From positions 64,001-128,000 of the forward strand of contig JASFQK010000015.1 in assembly GCA_050115495.1 (NCBI GenBank): a stretch of DNA of 64,000 nt, written 5' to 3'. The translations under genes were made by a program, and so were the position numbers. Positions 8,284 through 62,329 of this stretch are shown here, piece by piece. The stretch comes from Phycisphaerae bacterium (GTDB lineage: Bacteria; Planctomycetota; Phycisphaerae; UBA1845; Fen-1342). The notes under the pieces are model-generated. The model was not told where the DNA came from. It did no database searches and worked only from the letters and a program-made list of their open reading frames with translations. How positions within the stretch are numbered: the stretch's first letter is position 1; each line of letters opens with the position of its first letter.

Positions 8284-10245
8284 ATGGACGATAACGCGGC
8301 GATGCACAGGAAGGCCGCCGACCTTGGCAAACTCGTTGTTCGCATGACCGCCCTGGCCGGCTCCGGGCACCCTTCCAGTGCCCTCTCGCTCGCCCACGTG
8401 GTCACCGCCCTGATGTACCGGCGGATGCGGTACGATCCGGCGAACCCGTGGCATGCGACGGCCGACCGGCTGGTCCTCTCCGAAGGCCACGCCGTCCCGA
8501 TCGTTTACGCCGCTTATGCGGACCTTGGCGGGACCGTCGGCCGGGACCGGGATTCGGCCCGCGGGTTGACCGTCGCGGACGTCGATACGCTCCGGGATCG
8601 CGGCAGCGTCCTCGACGGCCACCCCAACCCCGGCGAAGGCTTCCCCTTCTTCGATGCCGCCACCGGCAGCCTGGGCCAGGGGCTCAGCGCCGCCGCCGGC
8701 CTGGCGCTCGCCGCCCGGCTCGACCGGTCCGATCGGCGTGTGTACGCCCTCGTCGGCGACGGCGAGTCGCGCGAGGGGCAGATCTGGGAGGCCGCCGACT
8801 TCATCGTCGATCACGGGCTCAAGAACGTCTGTGCCGTCTTCAACGCCAACGGGCAGGGGCAGGCGGCCAACGTCTCGCCGCAGCAATCCGCGACCAGGCT
8901 CGTCGCCAAGCTGCGAGCTTTCGGCTGGCAGGTGGTCGAGGTGGACGGGCACGATCCGGCGGCGGTCGACGCGGCCCTGGCGAAGGCCGGCAAGTCCCGC
9001 CGACCGCTGGCCATCGTCGCCCGCACGATCAAGGGCTGGGGCGTCGATCAGCTCCTCCAGGGCAACTGGCACGGCAAGCCGCTCAAGCCCGATCAACTCC
9101 CCGCCGCCGACGCGAGCCTCGATCGCGCCGTCGAACACCTGGCGGGGATTAACGACACACTGGATCGGCCACCGCTGCCGGCGAAGCCGAAACACAAGCC
9201 AGTTTCACGGCCGAATCCGCGCGAGGTGGAATGGCCGGCGTTCGCCGAAGTGATGGAATCGGGCGGTCTCAGCGGCGCCATGGCCAAGGGCAAGCTGTCC
9301 ACACGGCGGGCGTACGGGGCGACGCTCAGGGTCGCCGGCGATCTGCTACCGCAGGTGGTGGCCCTCGACGGCGACGTGAGCAACTCGACCTTCGTCAACA
9401 TCTTCGGCGCGGCGCACGCGGAGCGCTTCTTCGAGTGCAAGATCGCCGAGCAGAACATGGTTTCGGTGGCGGTCGGGCTGTCGGCGGCGGGGTTCATCTC
9501 GTTCGTGAACTCGTTCGCGAAGTTCCTGTCGCGGGCGACCGATCAGATCGAACTGGCCAACCTGTCGCGGGCCAACATCAAGATCGTCGGCTCGCACGCC
9601 GGCATCACGCCCTCGGCCGACGGGCCAAGCCAAATGGCCCTGCCCGACGTGGCGTACTTCCGGGCGTTCACCACCGTGCGCGGCGATGATCGCGTCAATC
9701 CGCTGTGCTGGTGCTTCCAGCCGGCGGACGCCGTCGCCGCCTATCACTGCACGCGGCTCATGCTCGAAAAGACCGGCATGTGCTACATGCGGACGCATCG
9801 GCCGGACGTGCCGCTGCTCTACGACGCGCAGACGAGCTTCGAGCCGGGCGGCTGCCACGTGCTGGCCACCGGCGATGATCTCACGCTCATCTCCGCCGGC
9901 TACATGGTGCACGTCGCCCGGGAAGCGGCGGCGCTGCTGGCGCGGCAGAACCTGCGGGTCACGGTGGTCGATGCGTACAGCCTGCCGCTGAACGCCGAGC
10001 GGCTGGCCGAGATCATGCAGCGTGGCGGGGGCCGGGCGCTGGTCGTCGAAGACAACTACGGCGCCGGCCTCGGAGCGGCGGTCGCCGAGGTGGCCGCAGC
10101 GCAGGGCGGCGTTCAGGTGCGCACGCTCTGTTGCGAGCGTCTGCCGAAGTCGACGCGCGACATTCCCGAGATCCTCGACTATTGCGGCGTGAGCGCCCCG
10201 CAGATTGCGGACCACGCCCTGGCCATGCTGCGGCAGCCGCAATGA
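8284..10245 (+). CDS. tkt: Transketolase (single chain)
   Basis: SGHPSS, LSEGHA, ATGSLGQG, GDGESREG TPP motif, IAEQNMV, DGPSQM; GGAGG RBS. Confidence 0.92.
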   Translation: MDDNAAMHRKAADLGKLVVRMTALAGSGHPSSALSLAHVVTALMYRRMRYDPANPWHATADRLVLSEGHAVPIVYAAYADLGGTVGRDRDSARGLTVADVDTLRDRGSVLDGHPNPGEGFPFFDAATGSLGQGLSAAAGLALAARLDRSDRRVYALVGDGESREGQIWEAADFIVDHGLKNVCAVFNANGQGQAANVSPQQSATRLVAKLRAFGWQVVEVDGHDPAAVDAALAKAGKSRRPLAIVARTIKGWGVDQLLQGNWHGKPLKPDQLPAADASLDRAVEHLAGINDTLDRPPLPAKPKHKPVSRPNPREVEWPAFAEVMESGGLSGAMAKGKLSTRRAYGATLRVAGDLLPQVVALDGDVSNSTFVNIFGAAHAERFFECKIAEQNMVSVAVGLSAAGFISFVNSFAKFLSRATDQIELANLSRANIKIVGSHAGITPSADGPSQMALPDVAYFRAFTTVRGDDRVNPLCWCFQPADAVAAYHCTRLMLEKTGMCYMRTHRPDVPLLYDAQTSFEPGGCHVLATGDDLTLISAGYMVHVAREAAALLARQNLRVTVVDAYSLPLNAERLAEIMQRGGGRALVVEDNYGAGLGAAVAEVAAAQGGVQVRTLCCERLPKSTRDIPEILDYCGVSAPQIADHALAMLRQPQ

Positions 10246-50885: not shown

Positions 50886-50958
50886 GCGGGCGTAGCTCAA
50901 TTGGTAGAGCATCAGCCTTCCAAGCTGAATGTTGCCGGTTCGAACCCGGTCGCCCGCT
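50886..50958 (+). tRNA. tRNA-Gly(TCC)
   Basis: Acceptor GCGGGCG/CGCCCGC, D arm GCTC..GAGC, anticodon stem TCAGC-CTTCCAA-GCTGA, T loop TTCGAAC; CCA not encoded. Confidence 0.97.
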
Positions 50959-50984
50959 TTGAGACATGATGCGACGCGGACGCG

Positions 50985-51024
50985 CAAGCTGAATGTTGCC
51001 GGTTCGAACCCGGTCGCCCGCTTT
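50985..51024 (+). repeat. Exact 40-bp duplicate of the tRNA-Gly 3' half (att fragment)
   Basis: CAAGCTGAATGTTGCCGGTTCGAACCCGGTCGCCCGCTTT identical to 50921-50960; 24-bp spacer. Confidence 0.95.
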
Positions 51025-51115
51025 CGTGAATGCTGTTGCACGTCGTAGCTAACTCTTGATTCTCGTTTGGGTTACGCGCCCCGTCCGCCCCGCCCCGCCG
51101 TGTGTCGCGATTGAA

Positions 51116-52690
51116 TCACGTGGAACCGTTTTGACTCGCTTGGCGTGCTTTTCCGCCAAGCAGAACGCCAAGCGCCTCGCCCGCCGGAGGCGTCGCCGTC
51201 GCGCTGTCCGTCCCGGTCGCCCGACCGTGTCCGCGGTCTGGCACGGCGTCCATGCTCGGCAGAGCGTCCAGAGCCGCCGCGGTGTCGAGCAGCCGCGGGT
51301 CGGTGTACGTGCCGAGCGTCAAGCGGATATCCGAGTGCCGCATGATCGTCTGGGCGGTCCGTGGGGCGACGCCCGCCTTGGCAAGGTATGTCGCCGTCGT
51401 GTGCCGCAAGGCGTGAACATCGACGGTCCGCCCGTCGGCGTCTCGTGTGTCGATTCGCCAGCAGTCCCGGCCCTTGCGGTCCTTCGCCTTCACCCGCCGG
51501 GCGATGCCCGCCGCCACAAGGTCGCGGTCCAGAATGCACACGAGCTGTTTCGGAACACGGAACACCGGACCGCTCGCCGCCCCGTCGCCGCAGTCGGCCC
51601 GCCACGCCCGCAACGACTCCGCCAAGTCCGCCCGGATCGGCAGTGTCTCGGCCTTGCGGTTCTTGGCGACAGCCGCCCGCACCGTCAACGTCGGCGCCTT
51701 GCCGTCCAGCGACAAGTCGCCCCACAAGAGCGCTGCCAGTTCGCCGCGCCGAAGCCCGGTAAGCACGAGCGTTCGATAGATCAACCCGCGTTCTCGGCCG
51801 AGCCGCCGGAGCTTGGCCACAAAGGCCGGCTTCAAGCGGAGCTTCTCGGCCGCCCGATCCGCCGCCGCGTCGATGTTCGCCAGCGTCAACGGTTCGAGCG
51901 CCAGCGGTCCCGGCTTCCCGTCCGGATTCTCTTCTCGCTTGATGCTCTCCCGCCCATGCTCGGCCAGCGGGCGAAGCTCGGCCACACGGAGCAGCGCCAG
52001 AAGCTCGTCTTCGGTCAACGCCCGCCGTTCCCGCCGCCTGTCGCCCGCTTCGTCGGCTCGCCGCAGCGTACCCAGCGGGTCGGCTACCATGCGACCGTCG
52101 GCGACGGCCCAGCGGATGAACGCCCGCAAGCTCGCGGTGTACGTGTTACGAGTCCGGGCCCCCATGCCTTCGCTTTCGCGGAGTCCTAACCACCTTTGGA
52201 CGGGCTCGGCCGTCACCCCCGCCAGTCGAGTGAAACCGCAGTCGGCAACGATGCGCCTGAGCCGCCGGAGCGTCTCGGACAAGTGCGCCGCCGACACGCC
52301 CGACGCCCGCAAGTGCGTTTCGTAGGCGTCAACGTGTCGGTCGATGTTCGCCTTGAGACTGGCGGAAAGGTCGATACTCTGCTGGTCAATGATCCCCGCC
52401 CGTTCGCGTTCCACGGCACGGGTAAGCTCGGCCGCCTTCGCGAGCGTCGCCCCCTTGTCGGCGTAGCCCTTCACCCGCCGCACGTGCCCCCCGGCGTCCG
52501 TGTACTCGATTGCCCAGTTTCGGGCTTCGACGGTCACGCGGCGCCCGGCGTGCCTGCCGCGTTTCGTGACTGGAGCCGTCACCATCCGGCCGTTGCGGCG
52601 GAACCGGGCAAGGCACTGGCCGTCCCGGTCGGAGAGCACAGCCCCCGCCGGTATCGGCATCGTGTATGTCGGTCGGTACACGCGTGCCAT
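51116..52690 (-). CDS. Tyrosine recombinase/integrase 1
   Basis: LTGLRRGEL (R), AKNRK (K), HALRHT (HxxR), MRHS, TLGTYTD (Y). Confidence 0.95.
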   Translation of the reverse strand: MARVYRPTYTMPIPAGAVLSDRDGQCLARFRRNGRMVTAPVTKRGRHAGRRVTVEARNWAIEYTDAGGHVRRVKGYADKGATLAKAAELTRAVERERAGIIDQQSIDLSASLKANIDRHVDAYETHLRASGVSAAHLSETLRRLRRIVADCGFTRLAGVTAEPVQRWLGLRESEGMGARTRNTYTASLRAFIRWAVADGRMVADPLGTLRRADEAGDRRRERRALTEDELLALLRVAELRPLAEHGRESIKREENPDGKPGPLALEPLTLANIDAAADRAAEKLRLKPAFVAKLRRLGRERGLIYRTLVLTGLRRGELAALLWGDLSLDGKAPTLTVRAAVAKNRKAETLPIRADLAESLRAWRADCGDGAASGPVFRVPKQLVCILDRDLVAAGIARRVKAKDRKGRDCWRIDTRDADGRTVDVHALRHTTATYLAKAGVAPRTAQTIMRHSDIRLTLGTYTDPRLLDTAAALDALPSMDAVPDRGHGRATGTDSATATPPAGEALGVLLGGKARQASQNGST

Positions 52691-52788
52691 GCTTCACCCG
52701 TTCATCCGCGTCCGTCGTGTGGGGTGCGGTTCAGGCCCCAATACACTGCACGGTTTGTCGATGCGCGCTATGCCCAGATCGGCATTGC

Positions 52789-54075
52789 TCACGGCCGCAC
52801 CTGCTGGTCGCCCCGCCCCATCGGCGGTGGAACACGATCAACACGATCAACTCGATCAGGTCGCTGCTTCACGTGTTGCTCGTCTTCGTCGTCTTTATCG
52901 TGTGTATCATCAATACTGGCAGGTGCGACGCCTTCTGCCCCGGTGCCACCTGTCGCCCGGGACGCGGGCGACGGAAGCTCCCAAGTCCAGGGCGGGTTCT
53001 TGATACCCTTTGGCCGATTCTTCACAACACCGACTCGCTTGGCGGCTCTGACTAAAGTGCCCTGGGCGATTTCTGCGTTGACCGCCCGGTCGCGCAGCGC
53101 CTCCACCTCCACCGGCCCGTTCGCAAGCTGTTCCTTGAGCCATTCCTTCGCCCTCTCGGTCGCGCCCTTGCCCACGCTGCTACCCTGCTCGGAGGCGAGG
53201 GCCTCGTCGGCGGCCAATTCCACGGGCTCTTGATCCCAAGAGACAGCCGGGCCGTCCCCATCGTCACGGATGACGAAGCCGAGACCGGGGGGGACCTCAG
53301 CGTTGTTCAGCTTCGCGCACGTCATGAGACGCCGTCGCGGGTTCTCCCTATCCCGCGATATCAGCCAAGTCGCACGAGCAAAGGCCGTGAACGCGATGGA
53401 CCCGCCCACCCGATAGACCGCTTTGGGCTGTGCCACGTTCTTGTTGAGATGCTTCACCAAGAGGACGGCAACGTGGTGTTGTTCCGCAAGCTGCTTCAAC
53501 GGCCCGAGTGCCACTCGCACATCCTCGTTCTGGTTCGTGTCCGTGTGGCCCAGGAAGCCGTCCACGGGGTCAATGATGATTAGTCTCACGCCCTTTCTCT
53601 TTCTTACCTCCTGCTCAAGCAATGCAATGTGGTCTTCGAGGCAAAACGGGGTGTCCCGTTCGTCCCCACGCGATCGTACGGCCGTCAATGCGACGATTCG
53701 TGCGGGGTTAGCTCCCGCCGCGGTCAACCGGGGCTTCACAGCATCGTCGAGGTTGTCCTCGGCAGCGAGTATGATGACGTCCCCCTCCTTATTGGGCTCG
53801 TTCGGTTGATCTGGCCACCGCGTTCCGGCCGAGACCCTCGCCGCGATATCGAGCGTCACAAAGGACTTGCCCAAGCCGGGGTCCCCAGCGACTATGTTGA
53901 GGGCACCGAGTTGGATGCGCTTGGGCCACAGCCATTCCGCGGGCCTTGCAACGACTTTCGTCAGCGGTACAAGCACGGCCCTAGCTTCCGGTTTCTTCCG
54001 CCTCTGAGCTGCCCGCTTGGCCGGTCTGGACGCGGACGACCCGAGGCGCTGTTTCTGGCGCGAGCTTCCACTCAT
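52789..54075 (-). CDS. AAA_25/RepA-like replicative helicase without primase domain
   Basis: EWLWP, GDPGLGKS, AAED, LIIIDP, HLNK, GGSIAF...AR. Confidence 0.88.
   Translation of the reverse strand: MSGSSRQKQRLGSSASRPAKRAAQRRKKPEARAVLVPLTKVVARPAEWLWPKRIQLGALNIVAGDPGLGKSFVTLDIAARVSAGTRWPDQPNEPNKEGDVIILAAEDNLDDAVKPRLTAAGANPARIVALTAVRSRGDERDTPFCLEDHIALLEQEVRKRKGVRLIIIDPVDGFLGHTDTNQNEDVRVALGPLKQLAEQHHVAVLLVKHLNKNVAQPKAVYRVGGSIAFTAFARATWLISRDRENPRRRLMTCAKLNNAEVPPGLGFVIRDDGDGPAVSWDQEPVELAADEALASEQGSSVGKGATERAKEWLKEQLANGPVEVEALRDRAVNAEIAQGTLVRAAKRVGVVKNRPKGIKNPPWTWELPSPASRATGGTGAEGVAPASIDDTHDKDDEDEQHVKQRPDRVDRVDRVPPPMGRGDQQVRP
52831..52857. repeat. 3 x 9-bp tandem repeat AAC(A/T)CGATC in the helicase 3' end
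   Basis: Copies at 52831, 52840 and 52849. Confidence 0.8.
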
Positions 54076-54284
54076 TGTCGCACCGCCTCTCCGGCCTCGA
54101 ACGCCCGCATGTCGCACCCGCATTCGATGAACCGGGCGATGTCGCTCTCACGCCAGCGCACCGACCGAGCCAGCCGCACCGGCAACGGGAGTCGCTCGGA
54201 GCCAGCCAGCTTCCATACTTGCCGCGTGCTCACGCCGAGCCGCGCCGCTACATCTCGCACACTCAACAGTCTGTCTTCCATCAT
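54072..54284 (-). CDS. AlpA-family excisionase/regulator
   Basis: LLSVRDVAARLGVSTRQVW...LPLPVRL..SVRWRESDI. Confidence 0.9.
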   Translation of the reverse strand: MMEDRLLSVRDVAARLGVSTRQVWKLAGSERLPLPVRLARSVRWRESDIARFIECGCDMRAFEAGEAVRQ

Positions 54285-54521
54285 TGCCGCAACTTGTCTT
54301 TCGCACTTCGCCGCTGATTCAATCTGCATCATCCTGGCACCTCGTTCCATCCGTGTAGGCCGCACACGCCGTGCGGTCTTCTCGTTCGATTATGCCAGTC
54401 AGTTTGGACGGACGAATGCGGCCGATTTTGTCCGGCGCCCTTGTCCGGCGCGGCGAGTCCGCAAGTGCTTGTGTGTACAGAGTTGAACGCCCCCGCAGGT
54501 ACGGACGGAATTAGTGGCCGG

Positions 54522-55133
54522 TCACTTGACGGATTTTCGGGCTCGCCGCTTTCGGTCCCGATCTATGGCGAGTCTGACCGCGCGTTCGGTCAAACCCTTC
54601 TCTTGGGCCAGTTCCGCGTACGTGCGCCATCGCTTGCCCTCCCACGCTCGGGCAATCTTAGCGTCGGCCGCGGCATCCGTGTCGGCCGGTCGCCCTCGCC
54701 GCTTGCCGGGCGTCGCGCCCCGAACGGCGATCGCGTCGCGAAAGGCCGTCTCGTACTCGACGGGTGCTTCCGACAGCATGTTCGACGTGATCGGGGTTCG
54801 TTTGCGAGCCGGGCCGTACGTAACCGTCGGTTCCACCTCCAGGATCAGCTCTTCGATCAACTCGTACGCCCGGTGCCGTACGTCTGCTGGAACGACGTCC
54901 CCGGGCAATGGAGGAACTAGCCCCGCATTTGCCATCGCATCGCGTGCCCGCCGCGCGCGCTCCAGAAGCTCGCGTCGGTGCCGCCTCGACACGACGTAGT
55001 AATCCGCCGCACGTGCTGGGTTGAAGGTCTTGCGGATATTGGACCGCCCGCGAATCGGGGGTCTGTAGGCCACCCGCTTGATGAACCCAGCGAGGTCCCT
55101 GAGGCAATCCTGCCAGACTACACTCTCGACCAT
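54522..55133 (-). CDS. Hypothetical protein with C-terminal HTH
   Basis: RRGRP..TYAELAQEKGLTERAVRLAIDR; start uncertain. Confidence 0.6.
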   Translation of the reverse strand: MVESVVWQDCLRDLAGFIKRVAYRPPIRGRSNIRKTFNPARAADYYVVSRRHRRELLERARRARDAMANAGLVPPLPGDVVPADVRHRAYELIEELILEVEPTVTYGPARKRTPITSNMLSEAPVEYETAFRDAIAVRGATPGKRRGRPADTDAAADAKIARAWEGKRWRTYAELAQEKGLTERAVRLAIDRDRKRRARKSVK

Positions 55134-55260
55134 AGCGTCGCCATCTCCAGAACGGTGGCGCGCACTCGCCTTCTCACGCCCTAGAGCGCCGGACGCGTTA
55201 GCGCGCGCGTTTGGCCGATCCATGCGCCGATCAGAACACGGGGGCCGCCACGCGGTCTCA

Positions 55261-55635
55261 TCAGTCCTGTCCAAACCACTCACGCAGCTTATCCCGGATG
55301 GCTCCCCGCCGCTCTATCGCCTCCACGGTGCGGACCTGAACCAGCTGGCGATCAATGCGACAGGTCACCAGGTGACCCCAGAGAAACCCAGGCGAGATCC
55401 TCACCTCAAGGTGATGCCGTTTGCCAGCGTGCACGAATGTCTCGTGGAACGGCCAAGTCTGGTCCAATGCTCTCCAGTCAAAAGACGCGATCGTCTGGAG
55501 GCGCGGCGACGGCGATGCGGTCACGTCAAGTGCGCACACCTCGACTCGGTATGAATGGTCGCTAATCCCAATGTCCACTCTGATTTGTCCTTGCCACGGC
55601 TCGCACGTGCTATGCAGTTCCTTGTCGTACGGCAT
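55261..55635 (-). CDS. Hypothetical protein (element cargo)
   Basis: GAAGGAG RBS then MPYDKELHST; beta-rich composition. Confidence 0.55.
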   Translation of the reverse strand: MPYDKELHSTCEPWQGQIRVDIGISDHSYRVEVCALDVTASPSPRLQTIASFDWRALDQTWPFHETFVHAGKRHHLEVRISPGFLWGHLVTCRIDRQLVQVRTVEAIERRGAIRDKLREWFGQD

Positions 55636-55763
55636 GCAGGTCTCTCCTTCCGTCGGACCACTGAGGATCGGTGCGCGCAGCGGCATCTCTCGCCTGCGGG
55701 GCTCGGTGCACGCATCGTACGCGCATCGCCAGACTCCGTCCGGCCGCCGTCTGGGTATTCGCG

Positions 55764-56234
55764 TTACACGCTAACGGAGCCACTCTGTGCCCTCGTGGCG
55801 GGCCTTGCTGTCGGCGCCCTGGTCGGCCCGGCTCCACGTCCGCGGTCGTCGCAGTTCCCGAGAATGTCGTCGTCCGAGTCCGCCGAGAGCCCAGCGGCTT
55901 CCGCCCGCGCGATCTTCAAGCCTATCGGCGACAGATACAACCCGGCCAGCATGCACAGCCGATGTAGTTCAAACGCCTCTACACGCGTTCGCGGCGAACG
56001 GCGCACGTCTCGGGCTATCTCGCCGCAGTGCCCCGCAACGGATGCGAGCTTCGCCACGAGCGCGGCGCGGATCACGTGGGCGACCCGCAACCGCTCACGG
56101 GCCGCAACCCGGCGGAGCAGTCTCAGCGCCGGGCGTGGCAGCCGGACGTGGACCGTCACGTCGTGCTGCCGCCCCCGCGGTCGCCCCCGCCGTCGTCCGT
56201 GTTGTTTGCTGTCACGTGCTGCAATCATACCCAT
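55764..56234 (-). CDS. Hypothetical protein, possible ribbon-helix-helix regulator
   Basis: RGRPR..VTVHVRLP..LLRRVAARE..VAHVIRAAL. Confidence 0.4.
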   Translation of the reverse strand: MGMIAARDSKQHGRRRGRPRGRQHDVTVHVRLPRPALRLLRRVAARERLRVAHVIRAALVAKLASVAGHCGEIARDVRRSPRTRVEAFELHRLCMLAGLYLSPIGLKIARAEAAGLSADSDDDILGNCDDRGRGAGPTRAPTARPATRAQSGSVSV

Positions 56235-56510
56235 ATTCTAGCAACGCAAGAAGTCTCGCGCCAGCCATATCTCGCTTGACTGTCAGGAGTTACGAGCGTT
56301 CGCCAGCCAGGCCACACAGCCTCCGAGCAGCAGGAAGCCACCTTCCCCGGCTCAGAGCCACAGCCGGCGGACCAGCAGAGCACTCCGGGACAACAACCCG
56401 CCGTTCGCCACGCACGGCCGGCTCGCCCACGTTCCGCCGGAGCAGCGGCCCAACCGGTCCGCTGTCGGGTTTGTGGCGGGGAACGCGACGCTCCCCACCC
56501 GAAGGTAGAC

Positions 56511-56532
56511 CAGGGTATCCCCTGTTTTTTTT
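56511..56532 (+). terminator. Intrinsic terminator-like hairpin
   Basis: CAGGG-TATC-CCCTG followed by a T run. Confidence 0.5.
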
Positions 56533-57011
56533 CAATTCATGCGGTAGGCTTTCCACGCTCCGACAGTCGTATTCGGGTCCACCGTCGCCATCACGGGGTG
56601 AGGTTCCCACTGAATCAAGTAGATCTCGCCCTGAGGCGTGACCGCAACGACCGTTCGTTCGTTTACCTTGATGGCCGCGGCAGTCCGTACCTCGATTTCC
56701 TTGGGGACGATTCCGTCCAAGGATGTCCCTTTGACGGCAATCTCCCGTGGAATACCGGAGATGTCCCCTGTCACGTGGATGCTGTCTGGAGCCCCGGTCA
56801 TTTGCACTTCATGTGGAACGCCAGACACCCGGACGGAGTAATCAGCGTGTTTCTCGCGCTCATAGAACGTGCCGCCCCAGAAGGCCACAACACCGATGAG
56901 AAGCGCGAGAACGAACGGGACGGCGGCGTTCCCGGCCTTCACGGTGATCGTCGGTCGTCCCTGGGGTTGTCTGGAAACCGCCTCTGCTGTCACGCGTGGT
57001 TGTTCGCTCAT
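56532..57011 (-). CDS. Hypothetical single-TM membrane protein
   Basis: AGGAGG RBS; TM VPFVLALLIGVVAFWGG; repeated V.G.P..I.V motif. Confidence 0.7.
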   Translation of the reverse strand: MSEQPRVTAEAVSRQPQGRPTITVKAGNAAVPFVLALLIGVVAFWGGTFYEREKHADYSVRVSGVPHEVQMTGAPDSIHVTGDISGIPREIAVKGTSLDGIVPKEIEVRTAAAIKVNERTVVAVTPQGEIYLIQWEPHPVMATVDPNTTVGAWKAYRMN

Positions 57012-57146
57012 GATCCAGCCGACCTCCTGCTGTTATAGTCCCTTTCCCGCCCCAGACACGGCTTGCGGCACTTCTCTCCCCGTACCGAGTTGGCATCCTG
57101 AAACGCATGCTCCGAAGCACACGCCGAGACCGTTGAGGTTTGCCTG

Positions 57147-58901
57147 TCACCGCCCGGTCAGCAGCGCCACAAACGGGCCGATGTCAAAGTTGTTCACCAT
57201 GCTGTCGGCGTTGATGTCTGCGTTGGCGGGGGTGCAGTCCGGGTAGGCCGCCGCGTAGCCGGCGGGATTGGTCAGGGCCAGCACGAACGGGCTGATGTCG
57301 AAGTTGTCCACGACCCCGTCGCAATTCGGGTCGCCGGGCAGCGGGCATAGTTCGTCCCCTGGCGGCGGGCACGCGCCGTATTCGTAGGCTCCCATGTCGA
57401 TGATCGGCGCCCCGCCGTAGCCGGTGTCCGACGTTCCCGGGTCGTCACAGAACCGGGCGTTGCCGTCCAGGTCGATCGGTAGCAGTTCCGTCAGGCACTC
57501 GTCCGTGTCCACGTCGAGTTCGTCACGCCCCACGGCGGAGTTGTCTCCCGCGTCAATGCAGGGTGACCCGGCCGCCAGCCGATAGTCGCCGTTCGTTGCG
57601 GACACGAAGAGCGGGTCACTCCCGGTGTTGCCCACGCCGCCGTAGACGCCGGACCAGCCTTCCACACACGAGTAGGTGACGACGTGGTCGCCGCAACAGA
57701 GATCAAGCTGGGCCGATTCACCGCTCCCGGTGTGGTCAGAGTTGCCCCACAGCACGGACGACCGGATTGTCGCGTCGCCCATCGCGTAGACCCCTCCGCC
57801 GAAACCGCCCGCTTCGTTGTCCGCGACCGTGCAAGCGCTGAGCGTGGCATCGCCACCGAGCGTATGAACGGCGCCACCGTACTCAAAGGCGAAGTTCCGT
57901 TCGAATGAGGAGTTGATGAACTGCGCGGGCGCGACGAACAGATAGACAGCCCCGCCCTCGCGCGCCATGTTTTCGGCGAACCTGCAATTGCTGACCTTCG
58001 CCAACGGGCAGCTCAGGTAAATCGCTCCTCCCCAGGCTTCCGCAGTATTGTTTGCGAACGCGCAGTTCGAGACTTCTGCAGACGCCTCAGCGTTAAGGTA
58101 AATGGCACCACCCGCATAGGCGTGGTTATCCACAAAACTACACGAGGTTATGACGAGGTGCTGCGACCCTGAACCTATGCGGTAGTAGATCGCCCCTCCG
58201 TTGTCGCTGCTCGCATTCTCCCTGAAGGCACAATTCTCTACTCGCGCATCGCAGTCCTGTAGCCGCACGCAACCGCTTGGCCCCATCGCCACGTTGTCCT
58301 CAAACGTGCACCCCGCCACAAGAAGCGCCTCGTTGCTGGCATGAATGCCCGCTGATGAGTTGTCGCGAAACAGGCAATCCAAGACACGCACTTCGATGTC
58401 GGGGTTGCCGTACGTGATGACGCCCGGTGGCGCCATTTCTTCGAAGATGCAGGCCTCAATGGTCACGAGGCACCCCGGAATATGTAGAGCGTAAGAGCCG
58501 TTTCCTCGGCGAAACGTGATACCGCGTATGACCGTCTCATGAGATTCGCAAGTGCCGAACTGGACACCCCACACTCCGGGGGCGTTCTGCATGTCGATGA
58601 CACACGCCGTGGGCTGCCCGTAGCTCTCGATGGTCAGCGCCTTGAAAGATATGTACAGGTTCGTGTTGCCTGCACCCATGTACACGCCGTCCGCAATCAG
58701 CACCGTGTCGCCCGTGGTGGCCGCGGCGTCGATGCCCGCCTGAATGGTCCGCTTGGGGCCGCAGCTTCCGCCGTCCCACGCTTCACAAAGGCCGTCCCAA
58801 CCGTCGTTGCCCGTTGTGCCGTTCACGTAGATCGTCCGTGCCGGGCACACCGACACCACCAGACCGACAAGAACCGCACAGATTGTCGCCGCTGCTTTCA
58901 T
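57147..58901 (-). CDS. Secreted right-handed beta-helix protein with C-terminal dockerin-like domain
   Basis: Signal peptide; TIQAGID; Pmp-like FxxN/GGAI repeats; [32 protein letters not shown]...[17 protein letters not shown]. Confidence 0.88.
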
Positions 58902-59647
58902 GGTCAGCCCCTTTCACAAAGGACGTGCCTCTCGTGAGCGTGGGAACCGCCACGGAATCCCGCCCATGCCCCTGCGCTGAGCCGGATTCCGGCGGATGCA
59001 TCCCCACACCGCCATGCTACCCAGCGGCCCGAGCCGGTTCAAGGCACTTGAACGCACCACGGCGCTTCCCCGTGTCTGCCGATGTTAAGATGTGCACCGG
59101 CCCAATTTCATGGGGGACCTTCCGCAAAAAAACGGCCTTACCCCTGCCCTGGTCGGCGCGGCCGGGGCCGAACCAGTTACGCCGCGTACTGCCGCCTGAA
59201 GGCTTGCCCGCGTCCACCCGATCGGCAAACAGACTCGTTCGGACGCGACGGTGCCCGCTCACGCGCCACACCCGGCCCGTGACGCGGGGCGCCACGTGCT
59301 CCGTGCCAGCGTTTGCCCGCTTCGGCGGACGGAACACCCGCCGGCAGCGCGGCCCCGTTTCGCGGCGGCCCTGCCGTGGGGCCGTCCAAACCGGCGTCCA
59401 GGGCGATTCCTCGCTGATGCCTACCCGGCGGCCGCCGCGCTGCTGATCGTTGATTCTGGGGTCTCTCCCGCGGTCTGGCGCGCCTTCTGGGCGTACCGAT
59501 GCTGTCGTTGCCGTCCGCAGCCGGCCAGCTGGTCGCCGGGCTCGCTTGACGATCCGCGGCGCTGCGGGCGCCGCCACGTGGCTGCGGGTCGCCAGCGATA
59601 ATAGCGGCCAGGCGGAGTGGCGGAACCGCTAACAGCAGCCCTGGAAG

Positions 59648-60006
59648 CGTAACCCCTGTAGCGGCAAGGGTTTAGAAAAGAGGACCTCTAGGGTTGAGAC
59701 AGCTTGCCAAGGGGTGTGACAAATCAGGCATCTGGGTATGCTTTGTCGCAAGCTATCGTAAATGCTTTCCGGGGCGTGGCTTAGAAAAGAGGACCTCCAG
59801 GGTTGAGACAGAGAGACAGTTTTGTCAATCAACATACATGAGGCTTCCCCTCCTGTTGAATAAGGGGTCTATATGTATGTACGCAAAATCGCTGTCTCAC
59901 TGTCTCAGACCGATTGGTCCGCAATTTAAGCCCTTACGGCCACGTAGCTTATAGCGGCCCGGGGTGAGACAGCGGACCTCCATGTCCGTTGTCACAGAGT
60001 GTCTCA
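59648..60006. other. Candidate replication origin (iteron-like repeats around an AT-richer palindrome)
   Basis: 31-bp direct repeats at 59672 and 59781; GAGACAG/CTGTCTC heptamers in opposed orientation; ~100-bp imperfect IR at 59804-59907. Confidence 0.6.
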
Positions 60007-60199
60007 CCAGCGGCTCACCCCCTGGTCTAGGAAGTCTAGGCGGGGAATTTGCAGGGGGGTTGTCGCAAAAAGAATGGCTTACCCCCGCGCTATGGGCCGC
60101 GGCGAGGGCCAAACCACGTCGCGCGTCGCGGGCATCGCGGGCAACTGGGGGACCCGTCAAGTGTATGGCTAGAGTACCTAGAACGCGCGGGTTGCCCGA

Positions 60200-62329
60200 T
60201 CAACCGACGGCAGACGCCGACGCTCGGCTGGGGTGCATGGCTCGGGCGAACGTGGTGAGGCTGTCGTTTGGGCGGGATGCACAGCGAGCCCAGGTGGGCG
60301 AGGCGGGCAGAATGGTATGGGGCCGCGTGGCGCCAGAGAGAACCCACGCCGGGCTAGGCTGCGTGGGGCCGTGGCAACTGGCCGTTGGGACATCGACGCG
60401 CCGACCGACGGTCGGACTGGGGTTACCGATCATACGTCGGTGGGGACGGCCGGCGGAAGGCGGAGTTGGAGCGCTCGCCTGTACCGTCGCGACGACGCCC
60501 GCCCGCACGGGCTCCGGCAGCGTCGGCCACGCGGTCACGACCGCCGCCAAGTCCGGGGCGCTGCTGGCAAGCTCCGCCAAGCAGTCCGCCAAGCGGTCGC
60601 CCGCCGTGGCCTTATCTCCCTGTTCCGCAAGTGCTTGTGATCCCGCCCCCGCAGCCTTCCAATCCGCGTCCATCGTGGCACTTACAGCAGCCCTGCCCGA
60701 AGGCCGATCATCACCGCTTGTGCCAGCTTGCGACCCGTTCGTACACGCGTTGCCGGAATCTGGTACAAGCGTTGGTACAAGAAAACTCCGGCCGTCCGTG
60801 CCCGTCGCCTTCGCCCGCTGGGCGTCCGGCCGCCCGATCGGCGGAAGTGCCGGCAGAGCGTCGAGCGCACCGGCCACGTCGAGTAGCCGCGGGTCGGTGT
60901 ACGTGTTCATCGTGAGTTCAATCGTGCTGTGCCGCATCGCGGCTTGCGCCACGCGCGGCGTCACCCCGCCTTTGCTCAAGTGCGTTCCGAAGGTGTGCCG
61001 AAGGGAATGCACGTCGAGCACGCGGCCGCGGTCGTCTCGCTTCGGTATGTCCGCCACCTCAAGGTCCCGGTCGAACGCCCGTACCAAGTCTGCCGGAACG
61101 TGAAACAGCGGCGTATCGTCCGGCAGCCGGGCCGGCAACGGCAATCCCTTCGCCTTCGCTGCGGCCCGCGCCGCGTCGAGCCGTTCCCCGAGCCAAGCGT
61201 TCAGGTCGGCCACCAAGTCGGACCGCAACGGGATTTCCGCCCCACGGCCGGCCTTCTCATCGGCCGCGGCGAGCACCGCATACGCCACCCGCCCGTCAAG
61301 CTCAAGCTGTGCGACGGTCAGCGAAGCAAGCTCACCCTTTCGAAGCCCCGTCAGTAGCAGTGCCTTGTATATCAAGGCCCGCTCACGGCCGCGGCGTTCA
61401 AGTTCGGCGATGAAATCGGGCCGCTTGGCGAGCACGTCGCGGGCGTGCGCTTCGGCCGCGCCGAGCGTGCTAAGCGTCAACGGCGCCCGTTTCCAAGTTC
61501 GTCGACTGCGATTGTTCTCACGCTTGCCGGCGTCGGCGAGCTTCACCGTCGGTCGGCCGTACTCGGCAAGCGGGCGCAGCCGCGCCACGGTCAGCAGCCG
61601 GCGCAGCTCATCTTCCGTCAGTGCCCGACGCGGCCGGCGTTGGTCGGCCTTGCCGTCCCGCTTCGGCGGGCGGGCGAATGGGTTGGCCGTCAAGCGCTTC
61701 GTATCGACGCACCAATTCCCGAAGGCGCACGCCGCCAGTAGGTAGCCGTTCAGCGTGTTGGCGGGCATCCCTTCGGCTTCCCGAGCGTTCGCCCACTTCT
61801 CAAGCGCCGGCCGGCCCAGGTCGCGCAACAGCGTGAAGCCGCAATCGGCGATGACGCGCTTGAGGCGAAACCGGGCGTTGCGGACATGCGCCGCGTTCGT
61901 CCGCGGCTTCCCGCCCTTGCCGCGCTTCGTGCCCAGATGCTCAAGGTAGGCGTCCACGTGCGTCGAAAGCGCGGTGGTCCGGTGGTCAAGCACGGCATCT
62001 TCCGCGGCCGTCAACGAACCGCAGCGGACCCGCTCGGCCCGTTTTTCAAGCTCGGCGAGCACGATCAACGCCGCGTCGGCGCTTCGGCAGCCCGTCGCCG
62101 TCTTGCGTACGTGCCCGGCCCCGTCGCGGTACTTCGCCGTGAACGTCCGCGCTTCGACAAGCACGCGGTCGATGTCGGCGTGCTCGCCGTCGGTCGGCGT
62201 CGTCACCTTCGCCGTGTGCTTGCGGCCCCGACGGTCGGTCCAGCGGGCGAAGCGCTCGCCTTTGCGGGTGAACACTTCCGCGCCCGACGGCAGCGGCTTC
62301 GTGTAGGTTTCGCGGTACACGGTGCCCAT
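60200..62329 (-). CDS. Tyrosine recombinase/integrase 2 with long C-terminal extension
   Basis: LTGLRKGEL, DEKAGR, HSLRHT, MRHS, TMNTYTD; paralogous to integrase 1 up to ATGTD. Confidence 0.93.
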   Translation of the reverse strand: MGTVYRETYTKPLPSGAEVFTRKGERFARWTDRRGRKHTAKVTTPTDGEHADIDRVLVEARTFTAKYRDGAGHVRKTATGCRSADAALIVLAELEKRAERVRCGSLTAAEDAVLDHRTTALSTHVDAYLEHLGTKRGKGGKPRTNAAHVRNARFRLKRVIADCGFTLLRDLGRPALEKWANAREAEGMPANTLNGYLLAACAFGNWCVDTKRLTANPFARPPKRDGKADQRRPRRALTEDELRRLLTVARLRPLAEYGRPTVKLADAGKRENNRSRRTWKRAPLTLSTLGAAEAHARDVLAKRPDFIAELERRGRERALIYKALLLTGLRKGELASLTVAQLELDGRVAYAVLAAADEKAGRGAEIPLRSDLVADLNAWLGERLDAARAAAKAKGLPLPARLPDDTPLFHVPADLVRAFDRDLEVADIPKRDDRGRVLDVHSLRHTFGTHLSKGGVTPRVAQAAMRHSTIELTMNTYTDPRLLDVAGALDALPALPPIGRPDAQRAKATGTDGRSFLVPTLVPDSGNACTNGSQAGTSGDDRPSGRAAVSATMDADWKAAGAGSQALAEQGDKATAGDRLADCLAELASSAPDLAAVVTAWPTLPEPVRAGVVATVQASAPTPPSAGRPHRRMIGNPSPTVGRRVDVPTASCHGPTQPSPAWVLSGATRPHTILPASPTWARCASRPNDSLTTFARAMHPSRASASAVG

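Follow-up and report, generated by a model that had tools for sequence, protein, structure and literature searches.

Integrase genes that span the attachment site in planctomycete islands: a widespread layout that probably acts as a switch favouring the inserted state

Judged from sequence, a gene layout in which the frame of a tyrosine integrase (int) extends across the attachment (att) site is real, selected and widespread in planctomycete islands, and our analysis suggests that it probably acts as a switch favouring the inserted state. The window, a stretch of 64,000 nt that forms part of contig C15 in a 5.97-Mb assembly (G000), contains two such integrase genes. In these islands, the sequence shows, int is not confined to the catalytic domain: its frame passes through the arm sites, the tRNA half belonging to the island and the crossover core. 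In attP, the form carried by the excised circle, the frame stays open into the opposite arm, where it closes with a conserved helical hairpin of about 30 aa that is of either of two types. Integration cuts int at the core; the predicted integrated Int keeps its full catalytic domain and gains a short host-derived peptide, and the hairpin is stranded at the far end of the island, lacking a start on the promoter side. That int spans attP, with a tailed circle form and a tail-less integrated form, appears almost certain. The explanation as a whole, which adds the history of the locus and a tail that activates Int, we put at roughly 60%.

Two islands at one tRNA gene in the window

The two integrase genes, int1 and int2, are both directed towards tRNA-Gly(TCC). 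The features of the locus are as follows.

50886..50958, plus strand: tRNA-Gly(TCC) (ARAGORN), the target gene, its 3' half contributed by element 2; the displaced host 3' fragment is at G000:C41:5838-5881
50924..50987, plus strand: first 64 nt of the att arm of element 2, severed from the remainder by the insertion of element 1, as assigned from the fold after in-silico removal and alignment to a relative's arm; contains the tRNA 3' half, a left hairpin arm (~50965-50980) and a 7-nt loop (50981-50987)
50988..60662, no strand: element 1, a 9.7-kb integrative island at a secondary site, with CAA at each end and an arm repeat common to both ends; its genes (Pfam) are Int, an AAA_25 helicase-like gene, an AlpA/HTH_17 gene and cargo
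50988..51024, plus strand: the copy of the tRNA 3' half that element 1 itself carries; its antisense reading is part of the int1 extension
51116..52690, minus strand: int1, tyrosine integrase of element 1, separated from the tail by a TGA at 51116-51118
51152..51174, no strand: arm-type direct repeat of element 1, int side (91% identity to 60573-60595), a putative Int arm site
60200..60472, minus strand: non-conserved read-through of ~90 aa past the motif, probably from a lost stop; the longest of 118 tails
60473..60577, minus strand: the conserved motif of type-1 tails, two helices flanking W-P-x-L-P; C-terminus of Int1 in its attP form (profile match, alignment and AlphaFold)
60573..60595, no strand: arm-type direct repeat of element 1 (23 nt), tail side, which assigns the tail arm to element 1
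60652..60662, plus strand: att core of element 1 (anticodon stem-loop sequence) and its right end
60663..62329, minus strand: int2, tyrosine integrase of element 2, with the remaining part of its att arm, including the right arm of the hairpin (~60663-60678)
60762..60781, no strand: arm-type repeat pair of element 2 (copies at 60762 and 60774), matched at G000:C41:5760 and 5772

As the original prediction had it, int2 reads through the inferred att core past its catalytic domain. The frame is open for 709 aa (62329..60200, minus strand), with PF00589 at residues 317-480 and the residues D-W-K-A (555-558) across the 11-nt core, a sequence that occurs in the genome only at 60652-60662 and in the tRNA. 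The tail of about 150 aa ascribed to this frame does contain a helical motif, but its conserved part ends at about 60473, some 65 aa past the core, and the further 90 aa are an outlier; over 118 tails the distance from motif to stop has a median of 4 aa, and the 90 of the window is the maximum. The int1 frame (52690..51116) was likewise found to hold a single TGA and to stay open thereafter through the tRNA duplicate, a 40-nt copy of the 3' part of tRNA-Gly at 50985-51024, 64 nt beyond the first copy. Joining this duplicate to the tail arm at the two CAA triplets continues in frame into the tail, as had been claimed, and this join is the correct attP for element 1. The route through the intact tRNA does break the frame, with the 64-bp offset corresponding to the displaced arm of element 2. 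Contigs from the likely source run are identical to the window at 50995-57216 and 57450-62319, with 50929-50994 unbridged by any listed piece; because these contigs, which are not independent, carry no differing letters there, the TGA and the junction do not appear to be errors of the window.

The 23-nt repeat is common to the int1 end and the tail arm, and the repeats at C41 adjoin both the displaced tRNA-Gly 3' fragment and a type-2 tail. Because the arm-type repeats, whose role as arm sites is putative, pair in this way, the tail arm was attributed to element 1, and the far end of element 2, which lies on another contig, was placed on C41. The present locus shows two oddities, namely the extra 64 nt at the left and the absence of a tRNA half at 60663, and in-silico removal of 50988-60662 accounts for both. 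Without element 1, the site forms a hairpin whose loop has 7 nt (-15.1 kcal/mol); among 1000 shuffles 7 folded as low, and among 2000 randomly drawn right arms 56 did. In this reconstruction the integrated Int2 has 580 aa, with a stop right past the core, and the attP form of Int2 has 674 aa and is open into the different, type-2 tail on C41. A genome of the same family carries an island at tRNA-Gly(TCC) (L291) whose Int is 72% identical to Int2 and 43% identical to Int1 and which bears a type-2 tail in frame; its arm matched the restored site in a nearly gap-free alignment (score 214, versus 125 and 107 for the two present ends). Loss of the tRNA half from the arm of element 2 by deletion was also considered and was superseded by secondary-site insertion on the strength of the restored hairpin and the L291 alignment.

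On these comparisons, element 2 very probably entered the anticodon loop of tRNA-Gly first, and element 1 later inserted off-target into the 7-nt-loop hairpin within the arm of element 2. Given such an off-target insertion, the fusion of int2 to the tail is a one-in-three accident. By the reconstruction, that fusion is a hybrid and not the attP form of int2 itself; the tail at 60473-60577 belongs to int1, with which it is in frame apart from one TGA, and the tail of int2 is the second type on the other contig. The proposal of a tail in frame with both integrases thus stands for int1, whereas for int2 the match is coincidental. A mismatched overlap hinders excision by tyrosine recombinases. That of element 1 would impede its own excision, consistent with a later stop in int1.

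Several other features of the two elements were observed. The target of element 1 is a non-tRNA hairpin (50965-50987 plus 60663-60678) that lies inside the integrase extension of another island and mimics an anticodon arm. The non-coding right part of element 1 contains a 34-nt direct repeat (94%; 59669-59702 and 59778-59811) with inverted short motifs nearby, a possible origin or transfer site, and its cargo at 57147-58901 includes a 584-aa beta-helix/PMP-repeat protein. The cargo of element 2 includes a 1972-aa ORF (G000:C15:133842-139760, L005) that extends to the contig end.

Reading frame across reconstructed attP sites

Tails and integrases were located separately and paired by the longest stretch they share, which had to reach 14 nt and to overlap an ARAGORN gene. 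For type-1 tails, 21 of 26 pairs were in frame (binomial versus 1/3, p 9e-7, a value overstated by the non-independence of related genomes, as are the p-values here generally), corresponding to 20 of 22 genomes, and the proportion rose to 21 of 22 when the int frame was required to stay open for 350 codons or more. The 21 in-frame linkers (195-513 nt) contain no stops in 2,235 codons, compared with 48 and 75 in the other frames; five of these segments are also open in one alternative frame. Four of the five out-of-frame pairs come from one assembly with short int frames (105-319 codons), and the fifth has an intact int (L128). Two further type-1 pairs (L230 and L311) were in frame. Under the same rule, all nine type-2 pairs were in frame and free of stops (8/8 once the G000 pair from which the model was built is left out), and over all sets, excluding that pair, 31 of 36 were in frame. 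Left out of the 26-pair count, as having no ARAGORN overlap or being too short, were L150, G168, G061 and G033/L074, the last in frame by eye, together with cross-locus arm-repeat matches. The replication count leaves out L306, L317, L319, L330 and L305 (arm-repeat or short matches) as well as two loci that are in frame by eye, L298 and L318. L245 is a duplicate of L120.

Among the pairs are 13 types of target tRNA as well as tmRNA, the two orientations are both represented, and a quick tree places the integrases in three or more deeply split groups. Three more islands of G000 fit the layout, at tRNA-Ser (C29, sense), tRNA-Glu (C28/C75, antisense) and tRNA-Val (C14), the last having an integrase of a different group and a type-2 tail. 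At tRNA-Ser, the island's tRNA half is without the in-frame TAA that the displaced host half has. The two copies of the tRNA-Ser 5' half (G000:C29:434-478 and 8840-8884, L001) were seen to differ at 4 of 45 positions, one of which abolishes the in-frame stop. Elsewhere in the genome (G000:C8:95177-95495), an int2-like gene is represented by its first 13 codons, some 200 nt ahead of tRNA-Thr; with a tRNA-Thr 5' fragment at 99075-99104, we read this as a deleted integrase remnant.

In the integrated form, the stop is reached at a median of 26 nt past the shared core (range, -1 to 241 nt), and int keeps the whole catalytic domain; in int2 the att site lies past residue 550. Natural single ORFs combining PF00589 with a tail made up 7 of 22 matches besides the window's own, most with tRNA-derived linker peptides. 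Direct int-tRNA-tail junctions were in frame in five of nine cases and open in three of nine. They may be mostly tandem hybrids, which is how we have taken them, and any true out-of-frame circle among them would be a counter-example. No circle junction was present among the 15 joints listed out of 20, in a search of contigs, which drop rare forms. The frame test as a whole supports the original proposal that attP lies inside an extended int, with the circle encoding Int plus tail and the integrated copy encoding Int without it.

Two families of tail

The type-1 tail is a helical hairpin of about 30 aa at the far att end of planctomycete islands. A search for the motif across Planctomycetota, suggested with the original prediction, found it conserved, constrained at the protein level, adjoining tRNA fragments and in non-random frame relative to int. 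In a single-protein search, it was present in 43 of 301 genomes of the phylum. Searches of contigs returned 263 genome stretches and 404 metagenome stretches, 80 of each being kept; among 80 named records, 78 were titled Planctomycetota and two actinobacterial, these two (L099 and L121) reflecting either spread past the phylum or mis-binning. At E 0.001 the family comprises 12,280 protein cluster representatives, called hypothetical where named, and the best 150 of these are without exception short ORFs (42-237 aa). Of 116 type-1 tails, 83 have a tRNA or tmRNA piece in the 450 nt upstream (33 being without one), compared with 2 of 115 that have one downstream. For type-2 tails the corresponding numbers are 17 of 45 (28 without) and 1 of 43.

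AlphaFold predicted the type-1 tail as a confident helical hairpin (mean pLDDT 91) that contains an invariant Leu and Trp. In the model of a natural fusion, residues 457-609 have pLDDT below 50, about 150 disordered residues, and the hairpin has values of 80-89. A homodimer prediction for the tail scored 0.37 (mark, 0.42). Fold searches with the tail model gave no match in Foldseek and a best VIA Z of 4.1, with none at or above 5; the weak rows include small dimerisation domains, which carry no weight as evidence. Neither tail matched a Pfam, NCBIfam or PHROGs family, apart from single weak Pfam rows for UBM and LRV_2. A protein search with int2 residues 556-640 returned only the query, the tail had no match among 50,697 phage records at E 1, and a search of viral contigs gave one locus. 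An ssrA-like degron was rejected as the identity of the tail on the absence of an Ala-Ala end in 150 representatives, a result that concerns this kind of degron.

The second family, with the consensus core A-R-L-P-L-S-D-A-E, is represented in G000 at C41:5556-5681 (L004) and C14:8933-9061 (L169). It was found in 37 of 401 genomes of the class with a two-row profile; a single type-2 protein as query had no match in 300 other genomes. No homology between the two types was detected by hhalign (probability 0.4%) or by profile score (near 0).

The type-1 motif also occurs in other settings. Three database proteins (P0002, P0003 and P0013) carry two to four motifs in tandem. At L011/L012 (G061:C20 and G168:C1), a type-1 tail precedes the gene for a Xer-like recombinase by about 1 kb, and no tRNA piece is clearly present. 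A 131-aa ORF with a good ribosome-binding site (L168:3020-3415, G000:C34) is found in a tRNA-Arg island whose integrase faces away from the tRNA and stops normally.

Role of the tail and comparison with known systems

We propose that the hairpin, carried on a long disordered tether, serves as a module for protein interaction, and that the tailed, circle-encoded Int is the more active, integration-competent form, most simply through the assembly of Int subunits. Loss of the tail on integration would lower Int activity and help to retain the island, a covalent switch of the Mx8 kind. For the direction of the switch, our analysis leans slightly towards activation by the tail.

The same layout would serve a switch of opposite sign, in which the tail restrains circle-encoded Int by auto-inhibition or faster turnover and a fresh circle gains time to replicate or move. 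The frame statistics fit this equally well, the motif does lie at the extreme C-terminus, and in the integration-dependent immunity of mycobacteriophages the att-spanning protein of the free phage bears a degradation tag that integration removes (PMC3694055). However, 0 of 150 tail representatives end in Ala-Ala, compared with 10 of 10 tmRNA tags, the tail termini being variable, and a folded hairpin with an invariant Leu and Trp resembles an interface rather than a linear degron. We consider restraint unlikely.

Less probable still is that a directionality factor or host protein docks on the hairpin, or that the hairpin is also made as a free small protein from the integrated arm, the in-frame fusion being one context among several. 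The type-1 motif forms the N-terminal part of the separate 131-aa ORF, which has a weak HTH_17 match (E 0.18), tandem motif copies exist in some database proteins, and 13 of 26 arms have an in-frame ATG, GTG or TTG. Yet an in-frame ATG is present in only 3 of the 26, the predicted starts, 3-212 aa ahead of the motif, share no common position, and a search with the 131-aa ORF returned itself alone. A free gene, moreover, would not require some 100 stop-free codons back to int.

By its codon pattern, the tail is a protein-coding element and not a mere DNA signal. Pairwise identity over 117 tails was 0.66/0.77/0.46 by codon position, a contrast inflated by the collection of tails with a protein profile; 55% of same-residue pairs use different codons, and the conserved Leu is encoded by TTR as well as CTN. 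A neutral by-product, with GC-rich att arms open by chance and the motif a DNA or RNA signal read as protein, would suit the long open frames usual in GC-rich DNA, the chance fusion of int2 in the window and the 5 of 21 segments open in an alternative frame, but is largely refuted and very improbable in view of the 0 stops versus 123 in the other two frames, the in-frame total of 31 of 36 pairs, the free third codon positions and the two kinds of Leu codon.

The layout explains a large orphan family as the cut-off ends of integrases and makes the tail a marker of where islands end. It also shows integrases that span att, known in bacteria chiefly from Mx8 and Mx9, to be frequent in one phylum and clearly under selection. 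Those recovered from integrated islands of these bacteria are the truncated form and may need their attP form to serve as tools, and control of direction without a separate factor becomes testable. More tentatively, and at less than even odds, the layout may be a phylum-wide and repeatedly re-fitted state switch: unrelated integrase groups would each have taken one of two interchangeable hairpins, which would act as a built-in directionality factor coded by the state of the DNA and be kept in frame through changes of target tRNA, with tandem and off-target insertions swapping modules.

The islands have the features of those that target tRNA genes through tyrosine integrases, namely an intact tRNA and a fragment at their ends, an integrase and arm repeats. 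Our literature search found no paper on an att-spanning int layout in Planctomycetota, and supplementary island tables may contain such elements; the term 'Planctomyc' does not occur in the available part of PMC12884075 or, by term search, in that of PMC8138268. The archaeal elements SSV1, pTN3 and pT26-2 have attP in int, target many tRNAs and translate the tRNA-derived att sequence (PMC7253208), and SSV-type integration gives two inactive halves, with the catalytic domain in int(C) (PMC8371274). The originally suggested likeness to SSV-type integrases holds for the position of attP inside int and for the tRNA target; in the present islands, however, the catalytic domain is wholly upstream of att, only a small tail is lost, and the hosts are bacterial (78 of 80 named records being Planctomycetota). 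In BPs and its relatives, integration strips a C-terminal segment from an attP-spanning protein and recombination itself is the switch (PMC3694055), but there the split gene encodes a repressor and the segment is a degradation tag, whereas here it encodes an integrase whose tail has no ssrA-like end.

The nearest precedent is Mx8. Its attP lies within int and integration creates a new 3' end of int without inactivation (PMC6070905), and Mx8 and SSV are named as having integrases that extend across attP (PMC4383910). A tblastn search with int2 against the 50,697-record phage collection (E 1e-5), in which the presence of an Mx8 record was unchecked, gave no Mx8 match. The planctomycete integrases share with Mx8 (and Mx9) a tyrosine recombinase with attP in its frame and an integrated form that keeps the catalytic domain and has a host-derived end. 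They differ in belonging to small islands and not to a known phage, and in losing a conserved hairpin, from one or other of two families, that follows about 100 linker codons and stays in frame across 13 tRNA types plus tmRNA, either orientation and at least three integrase groups.
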